This document shows, piece after piece, positions 2 to 63,086 of a stretch of 64,000 nucleotides of DNA. Source of the DNA: Abditibacterium sp. (GTDB taxonomy: Bacteria > Armatimonadota > Abditibacteriia > Abditibacteriales > Abditibacteriaceae); assembly GCA_965199495.1 (NCBI GenBank), contig CBDASK010000003.1, forward strand, positions 2,464,001-2,528,000, in the 5' to 3' direction. The notes under the pieces are model-generated. The model ran no database searches. It was not told the origin of the DNA and saw only the letters and a list, made by a program, of their open reading frames with translations. Position 1 is the stretch's first letter. Every line of letters begins with the position of its first letter. A program made the translations under genes and the position numbers.

Positions 2-283
2 GGCGAAGGCTTGATTTTGGAATTGGACGCCCGCGCTGGCGTCTGCGCCTCGACGGGCAGCGCGTGCGCGGCGGGCAGCTTAGATCCGTCGCCAGTTTTG
101 CTGGCGATTGGCCGCGAAGTCGGCCTGGCACGCGCCGGAACGCGCTTTTCGCTGGGACGCGAGAACGCCGCCGAAGAAGTGGACGAACTATTAAGTCTGT
201 TGCCCGAAGTGCTGGAAAGTTTACGCGCCCTCAGCCCAGCCACGCGCGCTGGCATCGCGAGCGGAGCGGATGTTGTGGTTTAG
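2..283 (+). CDS. Cysteine desulfurase (IscS/NifS-type), C-terminal part, truncated by window start
   Basis: GEGLILELD..GVCASTGSAC (catalytic Cys loop)..PSPVLLAIG..RFSLGR, typical group I desulfurase C-terminus. Confidence 0.85.
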   Translation, partial: GEGLILELDARAGVCASTGSACAAGSLDPSPVLLAIGREVGLARAGTRFSLGRENAAEEVDELLSLLPEVLESLRALSPATRAGIASGADVVV

Positions 284-321
284 AATTTTGGTTGAAAAGA
301 CAAGTCACTACTCACCTGCGC

Positions 322-456
322 TTGTCATTCTGAGCGGAGAGAGGCACGAACGAAGTCGAAGAATCCATCGGTTGCGAGTAAACTCGACTTTCGTCGGTAA
401 TCTTACGTTATGGATTCTTCGACTTCGTTCGTGCCTCTCTCCGCTCAGAATGACAA
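322..456. repeat. REP/REPIN-like doublet, GTCATT family
   Basis: Perfect 47-bp inverted repeat (322-368 / 410-456, TTGTCATTCTGAGCGGAGAGAGGCACGAACGAAGTCGAAGAATCCAT) with 41-bp spacer, between convergent genes. Confidence 0.9.
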
Positions 457-486
457 ACATGGAGAAGGGAGCGATTTGGATTAATT

Positions 487-1536
487 CTAATCAATCACAA
501 CTTCACGACCCGTCTTTGACGATTCGTAAATCGCGTCCAAAATCTTCTGCAACGCCAGCGATTCTTCCGGCTTGATGAACGCCTGCGCTTCGCCGCGCAA
601 AACGTCAATGAAGTGCGCCATGCGGTTGGTGTCCACCATCGGCGGCAACATCTCGACATCTTCGATTTTGTAACCGTTGGGCGTGTCGTGATACCATTGC
701 AACGGCGGGAACTTCAGGCCGCCGTCGGTGCCGAAAATCTGTGTGCCGTCATAATTATCGATGTGCGCGGCCCACGAAGCCTCCAGCAAAACCGTGCGCC
801 CGCTTTTGAGCTTGATTAAAGCAATCGCCAAATCGTCCACATCGAACGGTTTGTCGGGGTTGATTTCGCCACGGCCCCAATTTCCGTCGCCCAAGCCGCG
901 CGGGCCAAACTCCGCGTAGGTTTTGCCCGAAACACTCGCCGCATCGAACTCGCCCATCAGATAAAGCGCGCGGTCTAAAGCGTGAACGCCGATGTCGTAG
1001 GTCGCGCCGCCGCCCGCGAACTGGGTTTGCGTGAACCACGAACCGATGCGCGGAATGCCCGACCGGCGCAGCATCGCGGTTTTGGCGTGATAAACGTCGC
1101 CGATTTTGCCCGCGTCAATCATCTGTTTGGCGGTTTGAACGGTTTCGGTCATGCGATTGTTCTGGCCGACCATCAAAAGCGTGCCCTGTTTTTTCGATTC
1201 GGCGAGCAACTGCGCCGCGTCCGAGGCGCGCGTGGCGATGGGCTTATCAACCATCACGTTTTTGCCCGCCTGCAACGCTTCCAAGCCGACGGGCGCGTGC
1301 AAAAAGTTGGGTAACGCAATCGAAACCACGTCAATATCGTCGCGCGAAAGCAGCGTTTTGTAATCGGTGGTGAGCGTGGGAATGCCAAACTCGTCGGCGG
1401 TTTCTTTGCCGCGTTCGGGCGAAACTTCGGCCAGAGCCACGACAGTGGCGTTGGGGTGCTTTTTGAAGGAGCGAATGTGGTCTTGACCAATGGCGCCCGC
1501 GCCGATAACGGCGACGTTGTAATTGTCTTTTTTCAT
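487..1536 (-). CDS. Gfo/Idh/MocA family NAD(P)-dependent oxidoreductase
   Basis: VAVIGAGAIG Rossmann motif, VMVDKP, GGGATYDIGVHALD, C-terminal AIYESSKTGREV. Confidence 0.9.
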   Translation of the reverse strand: MKKDNYNVAVIGAGAIGQDHIRSFKKHPNATVVALAEVSPERGKETADEFGIPTLTTDYKTLLSRDDIDVVSIALPNFLHAPVGLEALQAGKNVMVDKPIATRASDAAQLLAESKKQGTLLMVGQNNRMTETVQTAKQMIDAGKIGDVYHAKTAMLRRSGIPRIGSWFTQTQFAGGGATYDIGVHALDRALYLMGEFDAASVSGKTYAEFGPRGLGDGNWGRGEINPDKPFDVDDLAIALIKLKSGRTVLLEASWAAHIDNYDGTQIFGTDGGLKFPPLQWYHDTPNGYKIEDVEMLPPMVDTNRMAHFIDVLRGEAQAFIKPEESLALQKILDAIYESSKTGREVVID

Positions 1537-1675
1537 GGGAAAAATAGCGATATTTAAGGTTAGCCGATTGAGCGAATTCGCGCGAAATCATAGACGTTTT
1601 ATTTCGTGGTTCCTAGGAGACGAACACGCAAATATCGCCAACTCATAAATCGGGTATAATTGCCCATAAATCTCC

Positions 1676-2662
1676 ATGAAAAATACCTCTTCTTCCGTCC
1701 GCCGCGCGCTGGCTTTTACCGCGTTTTGCGCTCTTGGTTTCGTTGTGACGAATGTAACTGCTCACGCGCAAGATGCGCTAATTCAAGATACAAATGTTCC
1801 CGCCGTGGCTGCTTCGTCGGTTGTGCCAGAAACGGCGTTTCCGACGCTGCTCGCTCTGGATAATAACGGCGTGTGGGCGCTGCATATTTCCGATGGCCAG
1901 CTCAAAATTAAGGGCGATGTCGCCATTGATTCGAGCAACAAAAGCGCGCTGTGGTCTTCGGGTGGCGCGGTGCAAATTAGCGACGGCGCTTTGAAAGTGG
2001 CTGGCGGTTATACCCATTTGGGAAACAATTCGATTTCGCCGTTGCCATCGTTGGGCGGCGCGCTGGTCGCCGATCCCATCCCCGATTTTCGTATCTCTGC
2101 GGATTTGCAATTGATGTCGCCGCAGAAACTTTTTCTGCAAACCGACCCCAACGATAACGACACCGAACTCAGTCCGGGCGTTTACAACGGCGGCATTTTC
2201 GCCAGCGGCAAAGGGCGCATTCATCTCGAACCGGGCGTCTACGTGATGAACAACGGCGACTTCAACGCCATCGGCCCCACCGTCGAAGGCGAAGGCGTGA
2301 CGATTGTGATGGCGGGCGACCAAGCCGGTTCGCTGAGTTTTTCGCTGGGCGCCAAACTCATCGCCTCGGCTCCCAAAACGGGCCAACTCAAAGATTTGGT
2401 TATCATCAGCCGCGCCAGCGGCGGTTTGAACAAAGCCGTGGCTTTTTCGGTCGCTGGCGCGCGCCTCGACGGCATCGTCTACGCGCCCAATACGCAGTTC
2501 AATCTGGCGAGCCAAGCCGATGTGCGCGCCACCAAAGTGATTTGCTTCAGTTGCAGCGTGGTCGCTTCCAAACTCGAACTCACCGGCACGCGCGACCCCA
2601 ATAACGGCGACGATGCAGCCACGGCGACCGAGAACGCTGAAATGGCACCTCAGCAAAATTAA
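1676..2662 (+). CDS. Secreted beta-rich protein resembling the C-terminal domain of TadG-like pilus-associated proteins
   Basis: Signal peptide ending AHA-Q; PGVYNGG..LEPGVY..GEGVTI..GIVYAP segments; TATAAT at 1655-1660. Confidence 0.55.
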   Translation: MKNTSSSVRRALAFTAFCALGFVVTNVTAHAQDALIQDTNVPAVAASSVVPETAFPTLLALDNNGVWALHISDGQLKIKGDVAIDSSNKSALWSSGGAVQISDGALKVAGGYTHLGNNSISPLPSLGGALVADPIPDFRISADLQLMSPQKLFLQTDPNDNDTELSPGVYNGGIFASGKGRIHLEPGVYVMNNGDFNAIGPTVEGEGVTIVMAGDQAGSLSFSLGAKLIASAPKTGQLKDLVIISRASGGLNKAVAFSVAGARLDGIVYAPNTQFNLASQADVRATKVICFSCSVVASKLELTGTRDPNNGDDAATATENAEMAPQQN

Positions 2663-6413: not shown

Positions 6414-7538
6414 ATGCACACGATTCCCGGCCTCGACGCACTGGCGCACAACTCCGATCTGCTCGCGCGCCTCGAAAACCAGCGCTTGGGTTTGCTCACC
6501 AATCCAACCGGCGTCACGCGCGACGGCACGCCCGCATTAGACGTTTTGCGCGCCCTTGATTTAAACGTCGTCGCGCTATTTTCGCCCGAACACGGCCCGC
6601 GCGCCGACCGCGAGGGCGAGATCGAATCGGGTCAATCTGCCGAAGGTTTGCCGATTTACTCGCTTTATGGAGCCACGCGCACGCCATCGCCCGAAATGTT
6701 GGACGATTTGGACACGATTATTATCGATTTGCAGGATGTCGGTGCGCGCTTTTACACCTATGCCGCGACGATGTTTCATCTAATGGAAGCGTGCGCGGTG
6801 CGCGGCATCGCTGTTGTCATTTTAGATCGGCCTAATCCGCTCGGCGGCGGTTGCGAAGGCCCAATTATCGAGCCAGATTTGCAATCGTTCGTCGGCGTGG
6901 CTGCTTTGCCAGTGACGCACGGCATGACGATGGCCGAACTGGCTCACTGGTTCGCGCACACGTCAAATTTGGCGATTGATTTATCATTTGCGCCCATCGA
7001 AGGTTGGACGCGCACCGCGCGTTGGCCCGATACGGAATTGCAATGGCGCCGTCCTTCGCCCAACTTGCCCGATTTCACTTCTGCCGCGTGGTATCCGGGT
7101 TTGTGCTTGCTCGAATTTTGCGATTTCTGCGTCGGGCGCGGCACGCCAGCGCCGTTTCAAATTTTGGCGTCGCCCGATTTGCCCGCCGCCGAATTCGTCG
7201 CGCGCTGGCGTAACAGCGCGATTGCGGCTTCGGTTGTGGAAATCGTGCCGACGCACGCCAAATTCGCGAACGAAAAATGTCGCGGCGTGCGATTTACGGG
7301 CGAGGCGCCCAAAAATCCAGTTGCGTTTGGCCTCGAAGTTATCGCGATATTACGCGCATCTCACCCGAATTGGCCGCGTGCGGATTTCGATAAAGCGGCA
7401 CAATTGATTGGCTCGCGCGCCGTGATAGACGCGTTGTGGAGCGGCGATTTGGCGACGGCCCAAGCGATTGCGCGCACGGACGGCAACGCGTGGAGAGCCG
7501 AACGCGCGCCGTTTTTGATTTATGGCATTGACGAATAA
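6414..7538 (+). CDS. namZ: Exo-beta-N-acetylmuramidase NamZ family (DUF1343/YbbC)
   Basis: LGLLTNPTG, LFSPEHG, YSLYG, DLQDVGARFYTY, LDRPNP, HGMT, PSPN, VGRGT. Confidence 0.9.
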   Translation: MHTIPGLDALAHNSDLLARLENQRLGLLTNPTGVTRDGTPALDVLRALDLNVVALFSPEHGPRADREGEIESGQSAEGLPIYSLYGATRTPSPEMLDDLDTIIIDLQDVGARFYTYAATMFHLMEACAVRGIAVVILDRPNPLGGGCEGPIIEPDLQSFVGVAALPVTHGMTMAELAHWFAHTSNLAIDLSFAPIEGWTRTARWPDTELQWRRPSPNLPDFTSAAWYPGLCLLEFCDFCVGRGTPAPFQILASPDLPAAEFVARWRNSAIAASVVEIVPTHAKFANEKCRGVRFTGEAPKNPVAFGLEVIAILRASHPNWPRADFDKAAQLIGSRAVIDALWSGDLATAQAIARTDGNAWRAERAPFLIYGIDE

Positions 7539-10328: not shown

Positions 10329-11813
10329 ATGAATTTTGCTCATTGGACGACGCCCCAACGCGAATTGTGGGCGCGTTTGCAAGCCTTCGATTTGGACGAA
10401 CCCGGCGCCTCGCTCGATTTCTCGCGGCGTCTGGCGCGCGAAAACGGTTGGACGCACCCATTCGCCAAACGCGTCGTCGAGGAATACAAACGTTTCTTAT
10501 TTCTGGCGATGAGCGCCGGGCATCCGGTCACGCCGTCGGACGAGGTTGATCAGGCGTGGCATCTGCATTTGGTTTATACGCGTTCTTATTGGGACGAATT
10601 GTGCGCCGACGTTTTGTGCGCGCCGTTGCATCACGGGCCGACGCGCGGCGGCGCGCGCGAGGGCGCCAAGTTCGGCGAGTGGTATGCCAAAACTCTGGCC
10701 AGTTACGCGCGTTTTTTCGGCGCCGACGCGCCCGCCGAGGTTTGGCCCGACGCGCAGACGCGCTTTGGCGAAACGACGCATTTTCGGCGCATCAACGCGC
10801 GGCGCCATTGGATCGTCGAAAAGCCGCGTTTGCAATGGCGCGCGCATTTCTCGCCCGCGCTGTTAGTCGTGTTGGCTTTGCTCGGAGCGGGCGGTGTGGC
10901 CTGGGGCGCGCAGTTGGGTTGGAACGTGTGGAATTGGTATGGCCCTGAGTTTCTGACGCTGTTCTGGCTGCTCACTTTCGCCGGTTTTGCGGGCATAATT
11001 TGGGCGCATCGAACGTGGAATGTACCCCACGACGAGCAGTTGCCGCTGCAAAAATTGGACGCTTATTCCATCGCCCGTTTGAGCGACGAAGGCGAGAATT
11101 TGCCGATTGATGCGGCGCTGGCTCACATGATTCAAGATGGACGCATTGGTGTCGAAAGCAATGGCGTCGTTAGCCGAATTGGAGCGATGCCAACAGATGA
11201 TTGGGAACGTTTGGTGTGGGACAAAATCGGCGTTGGCACGCGACAAATCGCGATGTTGCGCGCGGAACTCAAACCCTCGTTAAACCGCTTCGATGGCGAA
11301 TTGGAACGTTTGGGATTGTTTATCGCGCCCGCAGCGCGCGCGCAAATTGGGACGATTTCGGTGATGGTGCCGACGCTTTTGCTGATGCTGGGCGGCTCGA
11401 AAATTTTGGTTGGATTAAGTCGCGGGCGCCCGGTCGGATTTCTCCTCATTTCGTGCGTCCTCGTTTTGGTCGCGATGGCAATCGCGTGGAGCAATGTTCC
11501 GCGCCGCAGTCGGCGCGGTGACGCGTTTCTCGAACGTTTACGCGCCACACACCGGCGCGGCAGTTTGAGTTTGCCGCCGCTTTCCGATACGGCGCCAGCC
11601 AACGATGCAGCCACGGCGAGCGCGTTGGTTCTGGGCATGGCGTTGTGGGGCGCGAATGAAATGGACGCGTTCGGTCTGGGGCAGCAACGCCGCCTGATGC
11701 AGCCACCGCCCGCCAGTAGCGGCGGAAGTAGCGACGGCGGTTGCAGTTCCGATAGCGGCGGGTGTGGCGGTGGAGGATGTGGCGGCGGCGGGTGCGGAGG
11801 TTGTGGCAGTTGA
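10329..11813 (+). CDS. GRDP-like (DUF1399-type) domain fused to TIGR04222-type membrane domain with Gly/Cys-rich tail
   Basis: EYKRFLFL..TPSDEVDQAWHLH..YTRSY; GPEFL; KILVGLSRGRPVGFL; tail GGCGGGGCGGGGCGGCGS. Confidence 0.8.
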   Translation: MNFAHWTTPQRELWARLQAFDLDEPGASLDFSRRLARENGWTHPFAKRVVEEYKRFLFLAMSAGHPVTPSDEVDQAWHLHLVYTRSYWDELCADVLCAPLHHGPTRGGAREGAKFGEWYAKTLASYARFFGADAPAEVWPDAQTRFGETTHFRRINARRHWIVEKPRLQWRAHFSPALLVVLALLGAGGVAWGAQLGWNVWNWYGPEFLTLFWLLTFAGFAGIIWAHRTWNVPHDEQLPLQKLDAYSIARLSDEGENLPIDAALAHMIQDGRIGVESNGVVSRIGAMPTDDWERLVWDKIGVGTRQIAMLRAELKPSLNRFDGELERLGLFIAPAARAQIGTISVMVPTLLLMLGGSKILVGLSRGRPVGFLLISCVLVLVAMAIAWSNVPRRSRRGDAFLERLRATHRRGSLSLPPLSDTAPANDAATASALVLGMALWGANEMDAFGLGQQRRLMQPPPASSGGSSDGGCSSDSGGCGGGGCGGGGCGGCGS

Positions 11814-11829: not shown

Positions 11830-12540
11830 ATGAAAAATTTTTTCAAACCCGTGGTTTTAGTTGCCCTTTTCCCCATACTCCACGGTTGCACGCGAACGCA
11901 AGCCGAAATCGGCCAAACCGCAGACGCAATCCCGCAAACCGTCGCGCAGCAAAAACCAGTGCCGACTGCGACGCCGATGAATCCGTGGGAAGAATCGGCG
12001 GTGCGTCGCGTCAACGTCCAAAATCCCATCGCCGCCAAAATCGTCAAAGCCGCGCGCGCGCAGGAAAGCGATAATTACGATCCGTCCTATCAATCCATCA
12101 AATACCCCGGCGGCGACGTGGCTGCGGGGCGCGGCGCCTGCACCGATGTCGTCATTCGCGCTTTGAGAGGCGCCAATATTGACCTGCAAAAGTTGGTTCA
12201 CGAAGACATGAAACGCAATTTTCGCGCTTACGGCGATCATTGGGGTTTGGGCCACACCGACAAAAATATTGACCATCGCCGCGTGCCCAATCTGATGATA
12301 TTTTTCGCGCGTCACGGCAAAACTCTGTCGCTTTCGACCGATAAAGCTAACCTGAAAAATTGGCAGCCGGGCGATATTATTTGCTGGAAATTGCCGGGCA
12401 ATCTCAATCATATCGGCGTCGTTTCCAACGGCATCGGCGCGCGTGGTTTGCCGCTCGTGATTCATAATGCACAGCAGTGCATCGAGCAGGATTATTTGGA
12501 CGAATGGCCGATTACAGGTCATTATCGATATCCCAAATAA
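11830..12540 (+). CDS. DUF1287 (YijF-like) lipoprotein
   Basis: Lipobox LHGC; YDPSY..YPGGDV..GACTDVVIRALR..DLQKLVHEDM..NIDHRRVPNL..WQPGDI..HIG. Confidence 0.9.
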   Translation: MKNFFKPVVLVALFPILHGCTRTQAEIGQTADAIPQTVAQQKPVPTATPMNPWEESAVRRVNVQNPIAAKIVKAARAQESDNYDPSYQSIKYPGGDVAAGRGACTDVVIRALRGANIDLQKLVHEDMKRNFRAYGDHWGLGHTDKNIDHRRVPNLMIFFARHGKTLSLSTDKANLKNWQPGDIICWKLPGNLNHIGVVSNGIGARGLPLVIHNAQQCIEQDYLDEWPITGHYRYPK

Positions 12541-14720: not shown

Positions 14721-14923
14721 GGGGTTTGCGCTCAGGGCAAAGGCACACCAAATTGAGCGTGAAATGTAGGGTCACCGGCTTGCCGTGACCGCAAACGTCA
14801 ATTGAATTTGTTGCCTGACAAGAGCTTGATCGACCTGAAGCCGTGACGTTTGCGGTCACGGCAAGCCGGTGACCCTACATTTCACGCTCAATTTGGTGTG
14901 CCTTTGCCTTGGGGTTTGCGCTC
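14721..14923. repeat. MITE/REPIN-like element with GTAG-type REP cores and flanking 13-bp direct repeat
   Basis: Perfect 65-bp IR (14736-14800 / 14844-14908) containing GTAGGGTCACCGGCTTGCCGTGACC; GGGGTTTGCGCTC at 14721-14733 and 14911-14923. Confidence 0.85.
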
Positions 14924-15018
14924 TCTTTCAATCGGGACGTGAGGGAAAACCACGATAAGAACAGGAAGTAAGTCTCGCTAATTGACGTGGCTGGCGAGTT
15001 ATGCAAGAAGCCTAAAAC

Positions 15019-16469: not shown

Positions 16470-17882
16470 ATGATTCACATCTCTCAATGGTGGGCGCAAA
16501 ACTCGAACGGCAAGACGTGGCTGGCGGCGGGAGAGGACGCTTCGCTCCAAAAAATTGGCGAATTCGATTTGAGCGAGTTTTCGATTCTCGCGCTCGATGG
16601 CGCCATCGAAACCTTCGAACGCGCCGACGTGGCTGCGACGCTCGATTTGGAAAATGTCAGGGCGAACGGCGAGGCGATGGATGCGCGCGCCCAATTCGTG
16701 TTGTTGCCGCGCTACGCCAACTTAAATGGGCAACTTCAGACCAAACCGCTGGAAGCGTTTTTTGGCGATTTCCCCTTGCTCAAAAAGTGGGACGACGCGA
16801 ACCGTTTGTTGGTGTGCGATCTTTCGACGGCCCCAGCCTCGACCGCAGCCACGGCGGGCGAGACGATTTTTCACGCCGGGCCAAACGCGGCGGAAACGAT
16901 GATCGGGGTTTTGGCGCAACTGGGGCAGAAAAAATTTCGCACGATAGGATTAGATTTCCGCTTGCGTTCGGCGCCCGCCGAAGGCGCCGTGGCTCTGCCG
17001 TTGGGGCGCGGCACCGGCGAAGTGATTCTGCGGCACGATTTGGATTTGCTGCCGTTGGGCGCGCCGGGGCCGATTCGGATTTTCGTGGGCACCGACATTT
17101 CGCAGATGATCGGCGCCAAAGTTTTGCATTACAGCCTGCAAACTCACACCCCGATGACGGCGATTTTCGATTTGATGCAGGACGTGAATCCGCCCACGCC
17201 CACAGACAAAAAGAACTGGGCGCGCACCGAATTTTCGTTTCGCCGCTTCGCTATTCCTTCCAAGGCCGGTTATCAGGGACGCGGCGTTTATCTCGACGCC
17301 GATATGCAGGTTTTTCAGGATTTTCGCGAACTCTGGGACGCGCCGTTCGAGGGCGCGACCGTTTTGAGCGCGCCCTCGTCCAGTCCCACGCGCAAAGCCC
17401 AATACGCGATGATGCTGCTCGACTGCGCCCGCTTGAAATGGGACGTTGACGAGATTATCGCCGGTTTGGACGAGGAACGCTACGATTACCAGCAACTGGT
17501 CGGCGAATTGTGCATCGTGCCGCCCGAACAGACGCGCCAGAGCATTTCGTCCGATTGGAACTCGATGGAAGAGTTTACCGAGGGCAAAACGCGATTGATT
17601 CATTATACCGACTTGAATAAGCAGCCCTGGGTTTCGGCGCGCAACCCCAACGGCAATTTATGGGTGGACGAACTGGTGCGCGCGATGAAAGACGGCTTCG
17701 TTTCGCAGGGCGAAGTGGACGAGGCGATCAAAAACGGTTTCGCGCGCCCTTCGCTGGCGCGCCAAATCGCGACGCCGCGCGCTCTGTGGCCGATGTTCAA
17801 ATCTGCCGCGCGCCTTTTGGATCGCGGTTACAGACCGCACGCCGCCATCAACGCGCGCCTCTACCAGAAGACGCCCGCGTAA
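16470..17882 (+). CDS. Two-domain glycosyltransferase: N-terminal Rossmann-like domain plus GT-A (GT8-like) domain
   Basis: IRIFVG..TEFSFRRFAIP..GRGVYLDADM (DxD)..WNSME..LIHYT..QPW. Confidence 0.75.
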   Translation: MIHISQWWAQNSNGKTWLAAGEDASLQKIGEFDLSEFSILALDGAIETFERADVAATLDLENVRANGEAMDARAQFVLLPRYANLNGQLQTKPLEAFFGDFPLLKKWDDANRLLVCDLSTAPASTAATAGETIFHAGPNAAETMIGVLAQLGQKKFRTIGLDFRLRSAPAEGAVALPLGRGTGEVILRHDLDLLPLGAPGPIRIFVGTDISQMIGAKVLHYSLQTHTPMTAIFDLMQDVNPPTPTDKKNWARTEFSFRRFAIPSKAGYQGRGVYLDADMQVFQDFRELWDAPFEGATVLSAPSSSPTRKAQYAMMLLDCARLKWDVDEIIAGLDEERYDYQQLVGELCIVPPEQTRQSISSDWNSMEEFTEGKTRLIHYTDLNKQPWVSARNPNGNLWVDELVRAMKDGFVSQGEVDEAIKNGFARPSLARQIATPRALWPMFKSAARLLDRGYRPHAAINARLYQKTPA

Positions 17883-19009: not shown

Positions 19010-20395
19010 TCAACCTGATTGGCGCGCATCCGCCGCGTCTACGGCGTCCACTAAAATTTGCAGCGTGCGCGCAAAAGCTTGGTTTTGCGCGGCGAGCAAA
19101 GCATCGGCTTTCTCGCCCAACGCGCGGCGCAAGTCGGGCGAATCGAGCAGCCACGTCCAGTGCGCGGCCAACTCGGCGGGCGTGTGAACGCGAAAACCCA
19201 CGCCCGCCGCTTCGCACAGATTTTGCTCGACCGCGAAGTTGCCGCTTTTGGGGCCGTAAGCCACGGGCTTCGACCAGACCAACGGTTCGGTGACGTTTTG
19301 CGAGCCTGAAAAGATCGAGCCGCCCACGAAAATGCCGCTGGCCCACCGGTAAACCGTCAACAATTCGCCCAGAGTATCGAGCAGCAAAATATCAATGCTT
19401 GCGCCCGAACGTTCTTGGTGCATTTGTGAGCGGCGCGCGAGGCGCAATCCGCGTTGTTCCACCAACTGCGCGATTTCGTCGGCGCGTTTGGGGCGGCGCG
19501 GCGCCAACAGCAAAACCGGTGGCGGCCCCTCGTGACTCCAGTTCTCGCGGACGATTTGAAAGGCTTCCAACACCCAATTCTCTTCGTCAGGGTGCGTGCT
19601 GCCCGCGACCAAAAGTGGGGCAGCGCCCGCGTTGGTTTCGATCCAGACGCGCAAACTCGCTTCTTTGGCGGCGTCGAAAGGAGGGCGCTGGTGAGGAAAT
19701 TTGATGCTGCCGACGACGTGAGACTGCGCCGTCGCGGGCGCCAGATTCTCTACGTTTGGCAGATAATCCGGCGTCGTGAGCGTAATTGCGCGCAGACCGC
19801 GCAACTGCCAACGCTTGAACTTAACGCTTGGCGAAGAGCCTTCGTTGGCTCGCTTGATGCTCAGGCGCGCGTGAACGATGACGAAAGGCACGCGCTGCAC
19901 CCATAAGCTGCGGATGAGCGCGGAATAATTAAATTTCTCGTAAAACACCACCAAATCGGGGCGCGCGCGCGCGTGCCAGCGCGCCACGGCCCACACGTTA
20001 TCAAACGGCTTGGGCAAAACTTCTTCGTCGGTTAATCGAGACGCGGTTTCAATGGCTTCGCGCTCCATGACCGTGAAGACCAGACGGGCATCAGGGCGCG
20101 CCTGGCGTAGCGCGCGCGCAAGCGGCGCGATGGTGGCGACTTCGCCCCAACCATCGGCGATAATCGCGACGCGTGGCCCCTTTTTACTGTTTTCTCTCTC
20201 TGAGAGCGACGGCGTGGCTGCTTCGGGGAAATCAATGCTCCAGCGCGCCGGATCGAACTCGAAAGTGAAACCGTGATGGCGCATTCGTCGCCACTTTCGC
20301 CATAGGAAAACGGGCGCGCCTATCAAGCAAGCCGCGCTGTAGGCCAGCAGCCCGCCGTCGCGCAAAAGCGCCGCTAAAATTTTGGCTGATTTCAT
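19010..20395 (-). CDS. Divergent Kdo transferase-like protein (WaaA/KdtA, GT30)
   Basis: PFD, GSIKF, AGSTHPDEE, LAPRRPKR, DTLGEL, FVGGS..NVTEP..GP; ATGA overlap with upstream GT9. Confidence 0.8.
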   Translation of the reverse strand: MKSAKILAALLRDGGLLAYSAACLIGAPVFLWRKWRRMRHHGFTFEFDPARWSIDFPEAATPSLSERENSKKGPRVAIIADGWGEVATIAPLARALRQARPDARLVFTVMEREAIETASRLTDEEVLPKPFDNVWAVARWHARARPDLVVFYEKFNYSALIRSLWVQRVPFVIVHARLSIKRANEGSSPSVKFKRWQLRGLRAITLTTPDYLPNVENLAPATAQSHVVGSIKFPHQRPPFDAAKEASLRVWIETNAGAAPLLVAGSTHPDEENWVLEAFQIVRENWSHEGPPPVLLLAPRRPKRADEIAQLVEQRGLRLARRSQMHQERSGASIDILLLDTLGELLTVYRWASGIFVGGSIFSGSQNVTEPLVWSKPVAYGPKSGNFAVEQNLCEAAGVGFRVHTPAELAAHWTWLLDSPDLRRALGEKADALLAAQNQAFARTLQILVDAVDAADARQSG

Positions 20396-27324: not shown

Positions 27325-27382
27325 AAGTTAGAAAATGGAAGTTGTCGCGCGACGTGGCTGCTTCTGACCTCTCAAAAGAATC

Positions 27383-34859: not shown

Positions 34860-35732
34860 TCAACCCGCGCGCCCGTCTTTAACCGTCACTGCGCCCGCGT
34901 TGCGGCTCTCCAACACGCCCTCGAACGGCACCGACTGGTTGGGCGTGTATTTCGGCAACGTCTGCGGCGGCGTCGCATCAAGATCAATCGTCACTTTTAA
35001 AGCGCCTTTGACGTTTTTGCAATTGACAATTAGCGGCCCGGTGGCTGCATTGCCCAGGCTGACGAACTCGCCGCGCCAGTTGATTTTCTTGCCCTGAACC
35101 GAATCCCAGTAAAGCGATTGTTGCTGCGGCGTGCCCGTCGTGAGATTGGCGTAAAGTTCGTCAAATGTCGGCCCGCTTGCAGCCACGGCGCCGGTTGTCG
35201 GTGCGGCAGTCGCGTTTGGCGTTGGTTCGCTTGTCGGCGCCGTCGTCGCTTGCGCGGTTGGCGCGACCGTCGGTTGCGCGGTTGTGGCGGGCACAATCGG
35301 CGCGAGCGCCGTCGTCGCGCTGGGCGTAGGAGCCACGGCGACCGTCGGCGCCGGTTTTTTGCCCAGCAACGCCCACAACGCCATGCCCAGAAGCAACCAT
35401 CCCAAGCCGCCCGCGACCATCGCCCACGCGGGGACTTGCACCTTGTTTTGCGCGCGCTGCGCCATCGTCGGCGCGCCTTTTGGCGTTGGCGATTCAACAA
35501 TCGGCGTCGGTTTCGCTTCGCCCATCGGCGGAATTGCGACGGTTTTGGCGCCCGCATCGGTCGGCGTGGCAGATGGCGCGACGACGGGTTGCGGCGCCGA
35601 CTTTTGGGGCACATCTTTGGGCGCGACATAACCCGGCGCCCACGGCAACGCCGCGCCGCATTTGTAGCATTTCTCGACGTATTTCGAGTTTTTGGCGCCG
35701 CAAACGGCGCACTGGCCGAGATCAACTTTCAT
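34860..35732 (-). CDS. Zinc-ribbon - Pro-rich linker - TM - Pro/Thr/Ala linker - small OB-like domain protein
   Basis: CAVC..CYKC; single TM; C-terminal GKKINWRGEF..FEG. Confidence 0.7.
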   Translation of the reverse strand: MKVDLGQCAVCGAKNSKYVEKCYKCGAALPWAPGYVAPKDVPQKSAPQPVVAPSATPTDAGAKTVAIPPMGEAKPTPIVESPTPKGAPTMAQRAQNKVQVPAWAMVAGGLGWLLLGMALWALLGKKPAPTVAVAPTPSATTALAPIVPATTAQPTVAPTAQATTAPTSEPTPNATAAPTTGAVAASGPTFDELYANLTTGTPQQQSLYWDSVQGKKINWRGEFVSLGNAATGPLIVNCKNVKGALKVTIDLDATPPQTLPKYTPNQSVPFEGVLESRNAGAVTVKDGRAG

Positions 35733-41358: not shown

Positions 41359-42003
41359 TCAATCCACTCCGAACTCGAAACGCGCGTTGCCCAGCGAAAT
41401 TTCGTCGCCTGCGTTTAATTCCTGTTCGCCGCTCAAACGCGAAAACGCGCCTGCGCCGCCCGCGCGCCAAAAGGTGCCGTTGCTCGATCCCATATCTTTG
41501 ACAAACCATTTGCTGTTGCCACCATCGCGGCGAAACTCGGCGTGATGGCGCGAAACATACGACGCTTCGGGCAAAGGCGCCAAATCTACGTCAACCGGGC
41601 CACTATCGGGATCGAAGCGCCCGACGACGGCGCCGCTGGCAAAACGAAACGTTTCGCTTGTCAAAGCGCCGCCGCGCCGCAACGTGATATGCGCCATCTC
41701 GGTCGCCGTGGCTGCTGTGGGCACAGGCGTTGATGCGATTTGCGATTTATCGAGAACAACTGTCGAATCGGACGGGGAAAATTCGTAATTCGGCGCGTCC
41801 AGATTCATCGGTTCGGCGGCGTTATCGCCGCCGAATTCGTTGCCAAAGTCAACGGTATAACCGGCGCCGTCGTTGCCGCCGCTTGCAATGGGCGCGATTT
41901 GCGGCGCGTTGGCGGCGGGAACGGACTCGAATTCCATGCCGCAGTCGGGACAGACATCGGCATCGTCGGCGACGCTGGCGCCGCAGGTTAAACAGGTTTT
42001 CAT
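41359..42003 (-). CDS. Zinc-ribbon plus FHA domain protein
   Basis: CLTC..CPDC; VGR..VDL..VSRHHA..DMGSSNGT; TAGAAT 7 nt before ATG 42003. Confidence 0.92.
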   Translation of the reverse strand: MKTCLTCGASVADDADVCPDCGMEFESVPAANAPQIAPIASGGNDGAGYTVDFGNEFGGDNAAEPMNLDAPNYEFSPSDSTVVLDKSQIASTPVPTAATATEMAHITLRRGGALTSETFRFASGAVVGRFDPDSGPVDVDLAPLPEASYVSRHHAEFRRDGGNSKWFVKDMGSSNGTFWRAGGAGAFSRLSGEQELNAGDEISLGNARFEFGVD

Positions 42004-42050: not shown

Positions 42051-43247
42051 TTAACCCAACTTATTCACCCACATCATCGGAATCGCGTAGCTCATGCCGG
42101 TGCCCTCGACGCCGCTCGAAATGACACCGACGACCTCGCCGCGATTATTTACAACCGGCCCGCCCGAATTGCCGTGTGTGACTGAGCCGCCCAACTGAAT
42201 CACCGAAACCGCGCCACTTTTGTCGGTTTGCAAACGTTCGACGCGCACGGCTTTCACCGAAACCGAAGGCAAATCGCCATCGAGCGTTAAAGTTTGCACG
42301 CCAAGCGGAAAGCCGACGACGTAAACCTCGTCGGTTTCTTGCAGCGCTTCGGAACGGCCCGCCGAAAGCGCCGGAGATTGCCCGGCGTCGAGCGTGATTG
42401 TGGCCAAATCGTCCTGAAAGTCGGCGCCCTGCGTTTGGGGCGCGACGCGGATGCTCGAAGCAGCCACGGCGACGCTTCGTTCGCGCGGCGTGCCCGCATC
42501 GAAGATCAAACGGCAAGGGGCGACGCTGCCATCGGCGTTGACGACGACATGGCGATTGGTCACGATGCGGCGCGCATCGCCCAGCGCGAACCCCGAACCC
42601 ATCGCCCACGCGTTGCCGTCGCGGTGCGCGATTAACACTGTCGCGGCTTTGACATTTTGCAACGCGGCGGGCGCCAATTTGCCGCCGACCGGTTCGACGC
42701 CGGGCGCCAGTTGCGTTTGAGAGGCGTCCACATTTGTCGGCGCGGCGGGCACTTTGGGCAAATTCTCGACGCGGGCGCTGGGCGCCGTGGCTGCATCGGG
42801 CGCGCCCTGTCCGCGCAGTCCTATGACGCCCAGCACCAGCACAATCGCCGCCGTGCCCGCGATGCCCCCTTTTTGCGGCGCGCCCAATGCGTGCCATCTG
42901 TTCAGTTTTTGCTTGGCGTTACTTTTAACCTCGCTCGCAGACGATTTTCGCGATGACGGCAATTGCACCGTCGCGTTGAAATCGCCCAGTTGGATTTGGT
43001 CGCCGTCGCGCAAGTTGGCTTTGTCCACTTTCTTGCCGTTGACCAGCAAACCGTTGGTGGAGTGTTCATCGCTGACCGACAAAGTTTTGCCGTCCCAACC
43101 GAAGCGCGCGTGACGTCGCGAAACGCGTTGATAACCGCTCAGTTCCAGATCGCAATCGGCGGCGCGCCCGATGAATTGCGTGCCGGTGAGAGCCAGCGTG
43201 CGGCCCGTCATTGGGCCGCTTTGAACGAGAAGCGTAGGGAAATTCAT
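42051..43247 (-). CDS. FHA - TM - trypsin-like serine protease
   Basis: IGR..VSRRHA..STNG; single TM; GSGF, TNRHVV, DLA, GNSGGP. Confidence 0.9.
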   Translation of the reverse strand: MNFPTLLVQSGPMTGRTLALTGTQFIGRAADCDLELSGYQRVSRRHARFGWDGKTLSVSDEHSTNGLLVNGKKVDKANLRDGDQIQLGDFNATVQLPSSRKSSASEVKSNAKQKLNRWHALGAPQKGGIAGTAAIVLVLGVIGLRGQGAPDAATAPSARVENLPKVPAAPTNVDASQTQLAPGVEPVGGKLAPAALQNVKAATVLIAHRDGNAWAMGSGFALGDARRIVTNRHVVVNADGSVAPCRLIFDAGTPRERSVAVAASSIRVAPQTQGADFQDDLATITLDAGQSPALSAGRSEALQETDEVYVVGFPLGVQTLTLDGDLPSVSVKAVRVERLQTDKSGAVSVIQLGGSVTHGNSGGPVVNNRGEVVGVISSGVEGTGMSYAIPMMWVNKLG

Positions 43248-43314
43248 CGGAGCAAACGCACCAGAGTCGCGCGCTGGAAGTATGAAATAATTCGAGATGA
43301 GTTGACGAAAAACC

Positions 43315-46600: not shown

Positions 46601-49600
46601 ATGAGTCAACTGATTCACATTACCGACAAAAAGGGTTCTCGCATTGAGGACAAGCCGCTCGATCTCGACGACGTGCGCGCCAAACTCGCCGAAACCAACG
46701 GCAAGACCTATTGGCGTTCGCTCGATGAGCTGTCGCAAAAGCCCGGCTTCACCGAAATGCTGCGGCGCGAGTTTCCCGGTCAGGCGCCCAAAGATTGGGC
46801 GCCGCTTCCGCGTCGCGACTTTCTGAAATTGATGGGCGCGTCACTCGCGCTCGCCGGTTTGAGCGGTTGCGCGTTTCAGCCCAACGAGAAAATCGTTCCC
46901 TACGTCAATCAGCCGGAATCGGTCGTGCCGGGCATCGCCTCTTACTATGCCACGGCGATGCCGTTTTCGGGTTACGCGTTGGGACTTTTGGCCAAAAGCA
47001 CCGATGGTCGCCCGGTCAAAGTCGAGGGCAACCCCGATCATCCGACTTCGGGCGGCGTTTCGCAGTTTGCTTCGGCCAACGGCAAACCGACGCTGAAAAA
47101 ACGCGGCTCGACCGATGTTTTCGCGCAGGCTTCGCTTTTGACAATGTATGACCCGGAGCGCTCGCAATCCATTCGCCGCAGCGGCGCTTCGAGCAACTGG
47201 GACACGTTCGTCGGCGAAATCACGCAGCAAATTCAGAATTCGCGCCGCACCAGCAAAGGCGCCGATTTCGCGATCATTACCGATACCATCACGTCGCCGA
47301 CCCAAATCGGTTTGATGAACGATTTGCGCGATTTGATGCCGGAGTTGCGCTGGGTTTCTTACGAGCCAGTCAACCGCGATAACGTCACGGCGGGCACGCG
47401 TTTGGCGTTTGGGCGCGACTTGCATCCGGTCTATCATTTCGATAGGGCCGACGTTATCGTTTCGCTCGATTGCGACTTCATGCTCGAAGAGCCGGGCCGC
47501 GTGGCTCATGCGCGCGAGTTCATTGATGGTCGCCGCGTTACCGACAAAAGCGCGCGCCAGAAGATGAATCGGCTTTATGTGATCGAGTCCACGCCGACCA
47601 TCACCGGCGCGCAAGCGGATCATCGTTTCCCGGTCAAAGCCGCGCAAGTTGACGGCATCGCGCGCTCTCTGGCGCAAGCGGTCGGCGTGCAGGGCGGCGC
47701 GGGCGCGCAACAGGTGACAGCAGACCAGAACAAATGGGTTCAGGAAATCGCCAAAGACTTGAACTCGAACGCGGGCAAAGTCATCGTCGTCGCGGGTGCG
47801 CATCAGCCACCGGCGGTTCACGCACTGGCGATGGCGATGACGGAAGGCTTGAAAGGCGTGAATGACAGATTGCCCGCTCCTGACAGCGCGACCATCACTT
47901 ATCATGCGCCGATCGAGGGCGCGCCGGTTCCGCATTTGGCGGGCTTGGCGTCGGTTGTGGACGAGATGAAGGCGGGCAAAATCAAGACGGTTTTGGTGAT
48001 GGGCACCAACCCGGCTTATAGCGCGCCGCGCGATTTGGATTTTGCGGCGGCGTTCAACAAAGTTCCGTTTCGCGCGCACGTTGGGCTTTACGAAGACGAG
48101 ACCAGCAACCTTTGCACCTGGCACGTTCCCGAATCGCACTATCTGGAACAGTGGAGCGATGCGCGCGCCATTGATGGCACGGTTTCTATTGTGCAGCCGA
48201 TTATCATGCCGCTTTACGAAGCGTGCAAATCGCCGCTCGAAGTGCTGGCGATGATGGCGGGCAACGTCAACTCGTCGGGCTACGACATCGTGCGCGGCAA
48301 CTGGGCGCGCACCAAAAGTCTGGTCAACGACGGCACCTTAGCGGCGGCGAGCAATCAGGGCGAACTGGCGAAAAACTCGACTTTGACGCAGAGCGGCGCG
48401 AGCGGTTTGAACAGTCAGGGCATTAATAATGGCGCGGCGCAGGGCTTGAGCAACGGCCCGATGACGGGCGCGCAGGGCAGCAACGCGAGTAATGGTTCTG
48501 GGATTGTTGCCGTCAAGAACAGCAAAACTGGGTTAGTTGGCACTGAGGATGTCAACAACGGCACCATCAACGGCGGCGCGATGAACGGCGTCACGCCGAT
48601 GAAACCCGCGCCCAACGGCGTGACGCGCAACAGCGCGCGCGGCGTTGGCCCTGGGAATAATATCTTCTATGCCGATGGTCATGTAAAACCGAAAACTGGC
48701 GGTCAGCAAGTCGGCGCCGCCGCAACGACAACCGGCGATGCGTTTGCTTTCGACCGATTCTGGCAGGAAGCCGTTCACTCCGGCGTTATCGCTGGCACGG
48801 CGGCTCCGGCGATTAACGTGACGGCGGGCGCTTTGAATTTGCCCGCGCAAACGGTTATTGGGCAGGGCATCGAAGTCAACTTCCGGCCCGACCCGACGAT
48901 TTGGGACGGACGCTTCGCCAACAACGGTTGGTTGCAGGAATGTCCCAAGCCGCTCACCAAATTGACGTGGGACAACGCGATTCTGGTCTCGCCCAACACG
49001 GCGCACAAGAACGGTTGGAATAACGACGATGAAGTCGAGTTGACGCTTAATGGCGGCAAAGTCAAGGGCGCGATTTTCATGTTGCCCGGCCAGCCCGACG
49101 ACGCGTTGACAATTAATCTGGGTTATGGCCGCGCGCAGGTTGGCAAAATCGGCACGGGCGCCGGATTCGACGCCAATCAACTGCGCACGGTTGATGCTCC
49201 GTGGATGGCTTATGGCGTGAAAACGGCCAAGTTAGGCACGGTCTACAAATTGGCAGCCACGGCGCACCATAACCTGATCGCGCCGAGCGGTAAAGACACG
49301 ACTTTCGTCGAAGCGTTCGTCGGCGGCGATGACGCCAAGACCAAAGTCATTGACGACATGGTCACGCCCGAAACGCGCGGCAAAGATATTGACGGCACGC
49401 ACGGGCGCGACCTGATTCGCAGCGGCACCTTCGCGCAGATGCAAAAGGGTGAACTGCCCGTCGTGGAAGAAGACAAAATCGGCGTGCCGATTTCGTGGCC
49501 GCGCAATCCCACTCCGGCTTTGGCGGGCAAAGCGATGCCCACCAGAGACAGCAACGGTTTTGCGCAGGGCGATGGATTGGTTTCGACCGAAGAAGATGGC

Positions 49601-61742: not shown

Positions 61743-61817
61743 GGACAGCTTAAAAGGTAAAAATTCTTTGACCTGTTTTTATCCTTCATCGCTTATCCTT
61801 CCATTCTTTCTAAAATC

Positions 61818-62267
61818 ATGGCAAATCCTACAGACCAAAGATTAACCGCTCAACTGGAGCGCCCCGAAACCGTCGCGGGTAACGTCGGCCACGCTGGAAG
61901 CGGCATCGGGCCGGACAGTGGCCCGCACGAACATAATCAAGACCATATGGACGAACATACTCATCACGTTTCGATGGGGACGTATTATGTCGTTTTCGCG
62001 TTTTTGATGGTGATGCTGATGCTCACCGTCGGCGCATGGTGGATTGACGAATACAAATTCCCGCTCGGCCATTGGAGCATCCCGATTGCCGTCGGCATCG
62101 CCATCGTTAAAGCGGTCGCGATTGTGCTGATTTTCATGCACGTCAAGTTCTCTAGCCGCCTGGTGCAAATTTTCGCTTGCACCGGCATTGTGTTTATGGG
62201 CATCATGTTCGTCTTGACGTTTAACGATTACTTCACGCGCGGCTGGGTGCCGATTGCGGGACACTAA
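61818..62267 (+). CDS. ctaF: caa3-type cytochrome c oxidase subunit IV
   Basis: YYVVF..L..LTV, IAIVKA..IFMHVK, DYFTR. Confidence 0.9.
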   Translation: MANPTDQRLTAQLERPETVAGNVGHAGSGIGPDSGPHEHNQDHMDEHTHHVSMGTYYVVFAFLMVMLMLTVGAWWIDEYKFPLGHWSIPIAVGIAIVKAVAIVLIFMHVKFSSRLVQIFACTGIVFMGIMFVLTFNDYFTRGWVPIAGH

Positions 62268-62279
62268 AACAGACAACTA

Positions 62280-62315
62280 AAAAAGGCGCGACTTCTTCGG
62301 AAGTCGCGCCTTTTT
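62280..62315 (+). terminator. Intrinsic terminator of the respiratory operon
   Basis: AAAAAGGCGCGACTTC-TTCG-GAAGTCGCGCCTTTTT. Confidence 0.92.
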
Positions 62316-62351
62316 CGCCTCTTAAAACGCGATTTTTCGCATACTTCTGGT

Positions 62352-63086
62352 ATGCTCGACTTACACTGTCATATTTTGCCCGCTTTGGATGACGGGCCAA
62401 AAACGTTGGAGGAATCGCTCGAACTCGCTCGCTTTGCCGTCGCCGATGGCATCACGCATATTGTAGCCACGCCGCATTGCCATCACATGACGCACCTACT
62501 GCGTGCCGATATTCTGCCGCGCGTGAGGCAGTTTCAAACCGCATTAGACGCCGCGCAAATCCCGCTCACAATTTTTCCCGGTTCGGAAATTCGCACCAGC
62601 GACATCGCACTTTTTCGGCGCGAATACGATGAAGAATTGTTGTGCCATCTGGGTGACGATCCGGCCTATTCGCTACTCGAATTTTCATGGCGCGAACCCG
62701 AATATCCCGGCCATGCGCCCGAACATATTCGCTGGCTGTTGGAGCGCGGCACGCAACCGATAATCGCGCATCCCGAACGCCACAGCTTTTTCACGCACGA
62801 CCGCGCGCGCTTGCACGAATTGGTCGAGGCGGGCGCGTGGCTGCAAATTACCGTGGACTCGTTGCTGGGCAATAACGGCGAACGCCCGCAACGCGCCGCC
62901 GAAGATTATTTGTTGTTTTATCCCAACTGCGTGTTGTCCACCGACGCGCACCGCATGTCGCGCTGTTCGGGCATGGCGCGTGGCTACGAACTGGTGCGCG
63001 AACAATTGGGCGACGGACGCGCCGACGATTTGCTCGAAAGATCGGATGCCGTATTGGCGCATATACAATCGGTTTGCGCGCGTTGA
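62352..63086 (+). CDS. PHP-family protein-tyrosine phosphatase (CpsB/CapC/YwqE-like)
   Basis: DLHCHILP..DDG, ATPH, PGSE, LLE, PIIAHPER, STDAH. Confidence 0.92.
   Translation: MLDLHCHILPALDDGPKTLEESLELARFAVADGITHIVATPHCHHMTHLLRADILPRVRQFQTALDAAQIPLTIFPGSEIRTSDIALFRREYDEELLCHLGDDPAYSLLEFSWREPEYPGHAPEHIRWLLERGTQPIIAHPERHSFFTHDRARLHELVEAGAWLQITVDSLLGNNGERPQRAAEDYLLFYPNCVLSTDAHRMSRCSGMARGYELVREQLGDGRADDLLERSDAVLAHIQSVCAR

Follow-up and report, generated by a model that had tools for sequence, protein, structure and literature searches.

In a 64,000-nucleotide stretch of the chromosome of an Abditibacterium species (hereafter the window, G000:C3:2464001–2528000), the short non-palindromic word CGTGGCT, read as AGCCACG on the other strand, recurs about once per kilobase, and the question is what kind of genomic signal such a word represents. 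G000, the source assembly, comprises 4.81 Mb, of which 4.72 Mb is the chromosome (55.7% GC), the rest being two small replicons (24.7 and 64.6 kb); by comparison of RecA, its nearest named relative is an Abditibacteriaceae metagenome-assembled genome (MAG) with 77% identity. The analysis described here indicates that the word, extended as CGTGGCTG(C) and in its full form CG[C/G/A]CGTGGCTGC, is a self word of this chromosome that is specific to its lineage and is kept by a directional process that works strand by strand and saturates. In most of the properties that could be measured it resembles an uptake sequence; in the way it treats the two strands it resembles Chi. By analogy, it may be a transformation-linked DNA-uptake signal of the same kind as the DNA uptake sequences (DUS) and uptake signal sequences (USS), a reading that we adopt tentatively and at less than even confidence.

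The window contains 69 exact copies of CGTGGCT, 38 on the plus strand and 31 on the minus strand. A first-pass annotation of the same DNA, made by eye, had arrived at about 68 copies (about 38 and 30), and every coordinate it listed was confirmed. When the window was shuffled 100 times with its dinucleotides preserved, the word appeared 9.11 ± 2.87 times, with a maximum of 15, and none of the 100 shuffles reached 69. Relative to the gene calls, which throughout this work are crude calls based on open reading frames (ORFs) and made for this analysis, 37 copies are sense, 29 are antisense, and three fall outside genes. The intergenic examples given in the annotation were correctly placed, at 14986 between clpX and recA and at 27353 between two ORFs, and its comparison of variants in the first 10 kb was exact: CGTGGCT occurs 14 times, CGTGGCG 3 times, CGTGGCA twice, and CGTGGCC not at all. 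The frequent extension it had described is also present, as 45 of the 69 copies read CGTGGCTG (2.5 expected), and the 12-mer CGVCGTGGCTGC was found 17 times (0.14 expected). The observation of a hyper-abundant word in the window is confirmed.

Confinement to the window could be ruled out, since the word occurs 4,533 times on the chromosome, a density of 0.96 per kb, with 2,277 copies in the forward and 2,256 in the reverse orientation. In bins of 100 kb, these are evenly spread, with the exception of four clearly poorer full bins (54–70 copies). Replichore polarity, for which the first-pass annotation had suggested a check, was not seen on the arcs between the GC-skew extremes (799 versus 810 and 1,478 versus 1,446 copies), although the GC skew of this genome is very weak, as is its gene-strand bias, and the test is therefore of limited force. 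The word differs in this respect from the FtsK-orienting polar sequences (KOPS) and the architecture imparting sequences (AIMS), as it has no leading-strand skew.

Inside genes, where 4,128 of the 4,533 copies lie, the word could in principle be a side effect of codon usage, of codon-pair bias, or of the composition of the proteins. Two frames, xxC-GTG-GCT (1,766 copies) and, on the other strand, xxA-GCC-ACG (1,232 copies), hold 73% of the genic copies, and other words with C|G at codon boundaries also exceed a synonymous shuffle four- to fivefold, both of which would fit such an origin. The enrichment, however, remained when synonymous codons were permuted within each gene, keeping all proteins and dipeptides (20 shuffles). 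There were 2,341 sense copies versus 416 ± 16 in the shuffles (5.6-fold) and 1,787 antisense copies versus 328 ± 21 (5.4-fold), so that both orientations are alike, and among all 65,536 8-mers the two most enriched over this null were CAGCCACG (12.7-fold) and CGTGGCTG (9.3-fold). The spacers, with 391 copies versus 74–84 expected under Markov models of orders 1–3, are enriched about fivefold as well. The word also overrides codon habit: GCT, a minor codon, makes up 10.5% of alanine codons overall and 47% of those after GTG, and GTG makes up 35% of valine codons overall and 76% of those before GCT. Sister species of similar GC content have 0.06–0.16 copies per kb, and none of 14 control words shows the self-avoidance described below. 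A codon or dipeptide artifact was rejected on the basis of the protein-preserving shuffle and the spacer enrichment, and we regard a coding by-product as hardly credible.

The flanks lengthen the core to CG[C/G/A]CGTGGCTGC(T). With 690 copies, CGCCGTGGCTGC is the commonest 12-mer on the chromosome, and its G and A variants occur 357 and 276 times, respectively. The exact 8-mers are enriched 9- to 13-fold, words with one mismatch, as a class, stand at 1.0 (mostly below 1 when the mismatch is internal, still enriched when it is terminal), and words with two mismatches are drained to 0.83–0.89 of expectation. Close pairs are mainly inverted, with 168 inverted versus 30 direct pairs within 60 nt. 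Two further features of G000 word composition were recorded. The word AGAGACAC occurs 196 times versus 82 expected and, together with the G006 words of the ACACAGAGACAC / GTGTCTCT type described below, may represent a separate short repeat family. The palindromes CGGCCG, CCGCGG, GCCGGC, and CGATCG are nearly absent, the coding-sequence 8-mers that contain them numbering 0–22 versus 310–720 in the synonymous shuffle, which suggests strong past or present restriction pressure.

The spacing of the copies was analyzed separately for pairs of the same and of opposite orientation. Same-orientation core pairs are strongly depleted at short range on the G000 chromosome, the ratio of observed to expected being 0.16–0.49 at 8–400 bp, 0.57 at 400–600 bp, and 0.74 at 600–800 bp, and returning to about 1 at 1 kb and beyond; with the 9-mer, which is more specific, it is 0.15–0.17 up to 400 bp. 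Pairs of opposite orientation stand at about 1.0 from 20 bp to 3 kb, convergent and divergent alike, with the exception of a 3- to 3.8-fold excess at 8–20 bp that represents the hairpin pairs. None of the control words (14 other frequent 7-mers) is self-avoiding, their same-orientation ratio at short range being 1.1–2.1, and the gaps on each strand have a coefficient of variation of 0.81–0.85. What density remains at short range is nearly that at which the word would occur by chance, as would be expected if a copy near another on the same strand were simply not favored. Because the two orientations form independent self-avoiding series, we infer that the reader sees one strand or one direction and not an orientation-blind duplex. 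The favoring process saturates over about 0.6–1 kb. A model of directional duplex coverage, which predicts avoidance between convergent copies only, was rejected, as both arrangements stand at about 1.0.

The word was then sought in 13 species of the genus. The 10-mer CCGTGGCTGC was found 815 times in G000 (51 for the reversed-word control), 597 times in G011, and 192 times in G004, and 0–15 times in any one of the 10 species remaining in the genus, none of which exceeded its own control. The carriers of the word are therefore 3 of the 13 species. Since G011 (85% DNA identity) and G004 (80–85%) are the closest relatives of G000, with the rest of the genus at 65–79%, the word belongs to a single clade. 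The form in G011 is that of G000, at 0.875 per kb, and the spacing pattern is repeated there, with same-orientation ratios of 0–0.31 at 25–600 bp and opposite-orientation ratios of about 1.1. The dialect of G004 is longer, (A/G)GGACGTGGCTGGTGTC, with the core shared; its 14-mer occurs 1,406 times there and 9, 5, 1, and 0 times in G000, G011, G006, and G009, respectively, often in intergenic hairpins in which two inverted copies flank a variable spacer and a T-run follows. Nothing comparable was seen in samples of 80–180 kb from G006, G009, G010, G012, G013, and G015. Words of the ACACAGAGACAC / GTGTCTCT type are moderately over-represented in G006, where CACAGAGA has 22 copies in 87 kb.

Unrelated words were found in two genomes of other genera of the family; with the three species above, 5 of the 27 family genomes are known to carry a hyper-abundant word. 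G017, which belongs to another genus, has the oriented word AGTACGGTCGA in 2,412 copies (1,188 and 1,224 on the two strands), while each of the 26 other family genomes, its five congeners included, has 0–5 copies. In the form (A)AGTACGGTCGA(A), 91 of 153 forward copies are part of a fixed 24-bp palindrome with an offset of 13 (loci L226–L241), and the first ~37 kb of its contig C2 is nearly devoid of the word. No pairs occur at 25–200 bp in G017, the ratio is 0.04 at 200–400 bp, and about 1 is reached from 1 kb, so that the exclusion is hard over about 400 bp; as the copies in G004 and G017 are mostly inverted pairs, both orientation classes are excluded there. A candidate in G016, AACTCAAAAC, was rejected as a self word, having 473 copies versus 311 for its control and being a short tandem unit.

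The fifth carrier, G014, again from another genus, has a 4.3-Mb genome with 2,567 copies of the palindromic 12-mer GCAAGTACTTGC (extended form CTGCAAGTACTTGCAG). Each of the 26 other family genomes has 0–3 copies, and a congener has none. This word is mostly genic and occupies all three frames in the sampled loci (L162–L163 and L176–L193), a pattern like that of HIP1. HIP1 is the highly iterated palindrome GCGATCGC of cyanobacteria, which occurs at about 1 per kb, is imposed on coding sequence, and is lineage-specific, its mechanism not being known. The G000 word shares the hyper-abundance of about 1 per kb, the imposition on coding sequence, and the lineage specificity, and the relative G014 has a true palindrome; CGTGGCT/AGCCACG differs in being non-palindromic and in having two independent orientations.

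How such sites come into being was examined in codon alignments of the syntenic ACIII–cytochrome oxidase cluster from six genomes. Word sites lie at aligned positions at which the outgroups show unremarkable alternatives, some synonymous and some not, such as GCG-ACG versus GCC-ACG, GTT-GCC versus GTG-GCT, and CGC-GGC versus CGT-GGC. Some sites are common to all three word-bearing species, and many are lineage-specific. In a 252-kb alignment of G000 and G011, 195 sites are shared, 87 are found in G000 only, and 54 in G011 only. Core 7-mers are conserved in 70% of cases, versus 43% for all 7-mers and 26–62% for near variants. Single differences affect all seven core positions and include transitions and transversions, A>C, G>T, C>G, and T>G among them. 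Polarized with G004 as the outgroup, a hand count of few sites gave three gains and two losses in G000 and one gain and one loss in G011. Point substitutions, both synonymous and non-synonymous, create the word in ordinary genes and spacers. The conservation figures show that it is kept better than the neighboring sequence. The process is substitution under a directional force, and neither insertion of a mobile repeat nor a repair bias confined to a single transition.

These substitutions bear directly on a methylation-linked repair bias of the very short patch (VSP) type, as has been proposed for HIP1, in which a methyltransferase would mark the word and a Vsr-like mismatch endonuclease would convert near-cognates. 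G004 has a true Vsr (E = 6e-29), the strong avoidance of several 6-bp palindromes speaks for an active restriction–modification history, and the G014 word is palindromic, like HIP1. A VSP-type process acts, however, on a single type of T:G mismatch and would create sites by correcting T to C only, while the site differences are of many types at all seven positions; the non-palindromic specificity of 12–16 nt is unlike that of Type II methyltransferases; and the Vsr match in G000 scores below threshold (24.5 bits), while G011 yielded none. As Vsr does not track the word, this explanation was rejected and is very unlikely.

A mobile repeat is even harder to reconcile with sites that arise by substitution at aligned codons and not by insertion. 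Spread by a REP-associated tyrosine transposase (RAYT) or an IS200-type Y1 transposase, as for repetitive extragenic palindromic (REP) elements and their hairpin-forming doublets (REPINs), would suit the many intergenic G004 copies that form long hairpins of two inverted words. The spacers of these hairpins are not conserved, the G000 copies are overwhelmingly genic, and Y1_Tnp is present in 12 of the 13 genomes of the genus, with or without the word. The explanation was rejected because the transposase does not track the word and because of the genic copies, and we consider it highly improbable. Even taken together, the methylation-linked, mobile-repeat, and coding explanations retain little probability.

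Rarity in mobile and prophage DNA, another check that the first-pass annotation had proposed, was observed in an integrative and conjugative element (ICE)-like element, in defense islands, in a prophage, and in the small replicons of G000. The latter carry 0.32 and 0.19 core copies per kb, the chance level being about 0.14, and five chromosomal segments of 20–34 kb each are at about 0.25 per kb, with an extra poor region at 4.22–4.26 Mb. Their contents include the ICE-like element with a coupling protein, a relaxase, a serine recombinase, and Mrr; ubiquitin-like E2/ThiF/JAB defense cassettes; further serine-recombinase elements; a low-GC O-antigen cluster; and the prophage, with portal, TnpB, and 7-deazaguanine synthesis genes. 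The word is missing from recently acquired DNA, as these regions show.

Several of the word-poor regions have features of their own. The segments at G000:C3:416000–450000 and 504000–524000 (loci L214–L216) hold the ICE-like element, whose coupling protein is of the TrwB type, and, as probable defense systems, a GAP1/double-GTPase pair and two cassettes of the ubiquitin-like E2/ThiF/JAB type with multiubiquitin. The prophage at G000:C3:4241000–4261000 (loci L221–L222) has QueC/QueF-like, GTP cyclohydrolase I, and radical SAM genes of the 7-deazaguanine DNA-modification type, together with a ParB_N protein and a WHH/colicin-DNase toxin with its SUKH immunity gene. On contig C2 of G000 (64.6 kb), 10 of the 12 word copies have one orientation, maybe by chance (p about 0.04) or through one-directional replication or packaging.

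The first-pass annotation had proposed an uptake, methylation-linked, or nucleoid-protein signal. Of these, an uptake-like signal is supported as the closest class; methylation found no support in the behavior of Vsr or in substitutions of all types, and nothing was found in favor of a nucleoid protein. According to 10.1101/2025.10.24.684340, uptake sequences are documented for Neisseriaceae and Pasteurellaceae only. Their traits are a length of 9–10 nt, copy numbers from the hundreds into the thousands, division into dialects, inverted repeats at terminators, frame bias, and enrichment in the core genome. For Haemophilus, copies are reported to lie about 1 kb apart on average, to form close inverted pairs, and to be distributed fairly evenly, the evenness being credited to molecular drive (PMC7811141). 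Compared with these sources and PMC3630211, the likeness is extensive: a short non-palindromic word in thousands of copies at about 1 per kb, equal on both strands, genic with a frame bias and also present in spacers, forming hairpins and inverted pairs at close range, more frequent in core DNA and lacking in acquired DNA, relatively evenly spaced, and with dialects at the species level. The present word is found in another phylum. Our literature search, which did not cover supplements, brought up no report of a word of this kind from Abditibacteriota; the titles listed for Abditibacterium were ecological, taxonomic, or unrelated, and the uptake-sequence literature that it did find concerned Neisseriaceae and Pasteurellaceae only; when the word itself was searched, the matches listed were unrelated to genome motifs.

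If the word is an uptake signal, molecular drive would account for its accumulation. Some step of homologous DNA exchange would favor word-bearing DNA, and word-bearing alleles would replace word-less ones until each ~0.6–1 kb of each strand held one copy, after which a further copy nearby would gain nothing and would decay. The signal would act at a strand-specific step, for instance in the recognition or protection of the incoming single strand. According to PMC12061091, DUS recognition depends on duplex DNA, with some single-strand preference. Among the transformation genes, G000 has one HHH_3 (ComEA-like) protein, DprA, eight secretin matches, and 48 N-methyl pilin-like motifs.

Several points weigh against an uptake signal. 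ComEC is present in 13 of the 13 species and the word in only three, so that the transformation machinery does not explain the distribution; no receptor of the ComP/ComN type was identified in G000, and the literature search found no uptake or transformation data for the lineage. Hyper-abundant words are patchy here (the five carriers known among the 27 genomes of the family), whereas every member of the two known families has its uptake sequence, and, unlike in Neisseria, most of the close inverted pairs lie inside genes (113 of 136 within 40 nt in G000). A duplex-binding pilin receptor predicts orientation-blind avoidance, whereas here the orientations are independent and each avoids itself. 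Lastly, oriented words are accompanied in two independent lineages by a Dna2-like nuclease-helicase, an association that favors a Chi-like explanation.

The first-pass annotation had set Chi aside as strand-polarized. Even without replichore polarity, the self-avoidance on each strand restores a Chi-like, direction-reading mechanism as a serious rival. In PMC4614115, Chi is described as a short species-specific word that controls AddAB and RecBCD. The G000 word resembles it as an oriented word that would be read on one strand by a moving enzyme, that is over-represented in its own core DNA, and that has a core of 8–9 nt, of Chi length. Known Chi sequences are 5–8 nt long, and that of E. coli is about five times less dense than the word here. 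Within the G004 dialect, the stretch GCTGGTGT agrees with the E. coli Chi in 7 of its 8 letters.

In a Chi-like system, a translocating nuclease-helicase would read the word on one strand and stop degrading a broken end there; word-less alleles would be resected and recopied from word-bearing copies, which amounts to biased gene conversion, and the word would accumulate on both strands wherever no same-orientation copy lay just upstream. The orientation-specific avoidance with independent orientations is what a directional reader predicts, and the depletion in mobile DNA would suit a self marker, as with Chi. The usual readers were not found: RecC (PF04257) is missing in 13 of the 13 genomes of the genus, by which RecBCD is ruled out, and G000 has only two PDDEXK_1 proteins, neither of them with the UvrD-like helicase architecture of AddA/AddB. 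The absence of these readers and of replichore polarity sets the system apart from known Chi, as do the flanks that lengthen the word to 12–16 nt and the fused palindromic forms in relatives. Words of 11–16 nt and fused palindromes exceed the length of Chi, which, like the missing polarity, counts against the explanation.

The candidate reader would be an uncharacterized single-chain protein of 1,421 amino acids (Table 1). It consists of an N-terminal PD-(D/E)XK nuclease with a four-cysteine motif, a strongly conserved middle of about 650 residues, and a C-terminal helicase of superfamily 1B (SF1B), of the Dna2/Upf1 type. Its best sequence match among solved structures is DNA2 (5eaw, E = 7e-13), for the helicase part only. 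The predicted fold of the middle 680 residues has a mean predicted local distance difference test (pLDDT) score of 71.8; this region had no PDB match at E <= 0.001, a gap that tells against the candidate, and resembled RNase H-like/DEDD exonuclease folds and accessory folds of the Upf1 type only weakly. A DNA2-like helicase-nuclease named Bad has been characterized from the bacterium Geobacillus stearothermophilus (PMC7430649). The candidate shares with Bad the broad design of a PD-(D/E)XK nuclease with a cysteine cluster joined to an SF1B helicase. It differs in its length of about 1,420 residues and in the conserved middle without a recognized fold. We know of no sequence-specific behavior for any member of the Bad/DNA2-like family.

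Among the 27 genomes of the family, the nuclease-helicase was found only in G000, G004 (86% identity), G011, G017 (42%), and G016 (45%, plus a paralog). Its carriers within the genus are exactly the three word-bearing species, and G017, the sole carrier among six congeners, has its own oriented word with a similar exclusion zone of about 0.6–1 kb. Divergence of the protein parallels that of the word, 86% identity going with a shared core and 42% with an unrelated word. In the phylum sample, 14 of the 201 genomes have the gene. Homologs at E <= 1e-10 number 141, and none of the 120 listed has a specific name in any source; beyond close relatives they are at about 40% identity, with source labels that include Planctomycetaceae, Thermomicrobiales, Sphaerobacter, and Chloroflexi. 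No conserved neighborhood was found across G000, G004, G017, and G016, in which the flanking genes are, respectively, topoisomerase IB and TPR; ORFs of no known function and VWA; S-adenosylmethionine synthetase; and the defense genes McrBC, Z1, and Mrr.

Other observations go against this enzyme as the reader. In the G011 ortholog (G011:C5:36235–38455), residues 680–1421 remain, with a frameshift and a deletion of about 2.2 kb that includes the nuclease domain, and yet G011 has the word at the density given above; the truncation could be a real pseudogene or an assembly error of the MAG. G014 has its palindromic word with no homolog, even by profile search, and G016 has the gene with no hyper-abundant word in the 63 kb sampled, 40 kb of which is defense-island context. 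The three word-bearing species of the genus form one clade, so that any clade-specific gene would correlate with the word. A metagenome scan for contigs bearing the gene gave two loci, and a count of repeated words within loci did not tell positives apart from 55 RecA-locus controls. The nuclease-helicase co-occurs with an oriented word in two independent lineages, with few lineages behind the correlation, and the tally left is these two co-occurrences, one lineage with the gene only, and one with the word only. A Chi-like reading by this protein is possible and at the same time doubtful. The fuller proposal is somewhat more doubtful still: that a widespread but patchily inherited Dna2-like Fe-S nuclease-helicase would read an oriented word of 9–14 nt in a new Chi-like system, each acquiring lineage rewriting thousands of sites by biased gene conversion, one even series per strand.

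The spacing would also be compatible with another DNA machine that reads direction, in strand discrimination or nicking during repair, in priming without a fixed direction of replication, or in self/non-self discrimination, with selection for coverage of each strand setting the distance. Each strand has its own even series with the exclusion zone of about 0.6–1 kb, and the very weak GC skew and gene-strand bias suggest that the direction of replication may not be fixed. No candidate enzyme was found for it, however; with about 4,500 sites to maintain, selection on each would be far feebler than a drive, and the depletion in mobile DNA is explained no better than by an uptake signal or a Chi-like system. 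Such a machine seems unlikely.

Table 1. Positions of the heptamer and its extended forms in the window, and of the candidate nuclease-helicase on the chromosome.
Feature	Position	Strand	Remark
CGTGGCT core (38 copies)	1804, 2437, 3202, 6896, 7619, 9889, 12117, 14986, 16516, 16628, 16988, 20213, 21962, 24428, 25946, 27353, 29498, 31626, 33737, 36457, 36772, 37449, 41158, 41707, 42786, 45464, 45712, 47500, 51484, 53751, 54257, 54444, 56035, 59347, 59668, 60709, 62836, 62979	+	
CGTGGCT core (31 copies)	238, 1435, 2617, 2957, 4496, 5849, 6671, 8501, 11609, 14168, 15976, 16847, 19149, 19259, 20932, 23324, 26148, 27757, 32023, 34439, 35181, 35331, 40615, 42462, 45099, 49255, 55605, 57146, 58181, 60813, 62465	-	
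All core copies in the window (span)	238..62985	both	
Full 12-mer CGCCGTGGCTGC	1801..1812	+	
Full 12-mer CGCCGTGGCTGC	2615..2626	-	
Full 12-mer CGGCGTGGCTGC	6893..6904	+	
Full 12-mer CGCCGTGGCTGC	11607..11618	-	
Full 12-mer CGACGTGGCTGC	12114..12125	+	
Intergenic CGTGGCTG	14986..14993	+	between convergent clpX and recA
Full 12-mer CGACGTGGCTGC	16625..16636	+	
Full 12-mer CGCCGTGGCTGC	16845..16856	-	
Full 12-mer CGGCGTGGCTGC	20210..20221	+	
Full 12-mer CGACGTGGCTGC	27350..27361	+	intergenic, upstream of the ORF starting at 27383
Full 12-mer CGCCGTGGCTGC	31623..31634	+	
Full 12-mer CGCCGTGGCTGC	33734..33745	+	
Full 12-mer CGCCGTGGCTGC	35179..35190	-	
Full 12-mer CGCCGTGGCTGC	40613..40624	-	
Full 12-mer CGCCGTGGCTGC	41704..41715	+	
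Full 12-mer CGCCGTGGCTGC	42460..42471	-	
Full 12-mer CGCCGTGGCTGC	42783..42794	+	
Full 12-mer CGCCGTGGCTGC	49253..49264	-	
Nuclease-helicase, 1,421 aa	G000:C3:4111365-4115630 (locus L175:6365-10630)	-	adjoins a bacterial topoisomerase IB gene

The window has other features as well. Between clpX and recA, at 14744–14900, is a long, near-perfect inverted repeat with arms of about 55 nt, resembling a miniature inverted-repeat transposable element (MITE) or a REP element and unrelated to the word. RecA (15061–16290, minus strand), as called from a GTG start, has 409 residues, with about 60 extra residues at the N-terminus and the domain beginning at residue 63; this start is putative. At 27874–43316, genes for Ser/Thr kinases, one of which has WD40 repeats, are densely clustered with those for FHA and VWA proteins, a PP2C phosphatase–kinase fusion, and an FHA–trypsin protease, all on the minus strand.

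With at least three unrelated words in one family, this clear case of a self word in a distant and little-studied phylum would show that such words evolve repeatedly and quickly. Self-avoidance on each strand is a cheap discriminating statistic that is applicable to any genome, and the candidate enzyme makes it testable how USS, DUS, HIP1, and Chi accumulate and by what reader. If the Chi-like explanation were true, the word would be a high-density self marker doubling as a barrier to foreign DNA, and G017 and the G000 clade, with their unrelated words, would each be an independent case. In these genomes, the density of the word marks foreign DNA, and the word would also matter for the development of genetic tools for the Abditibacteriaceae.

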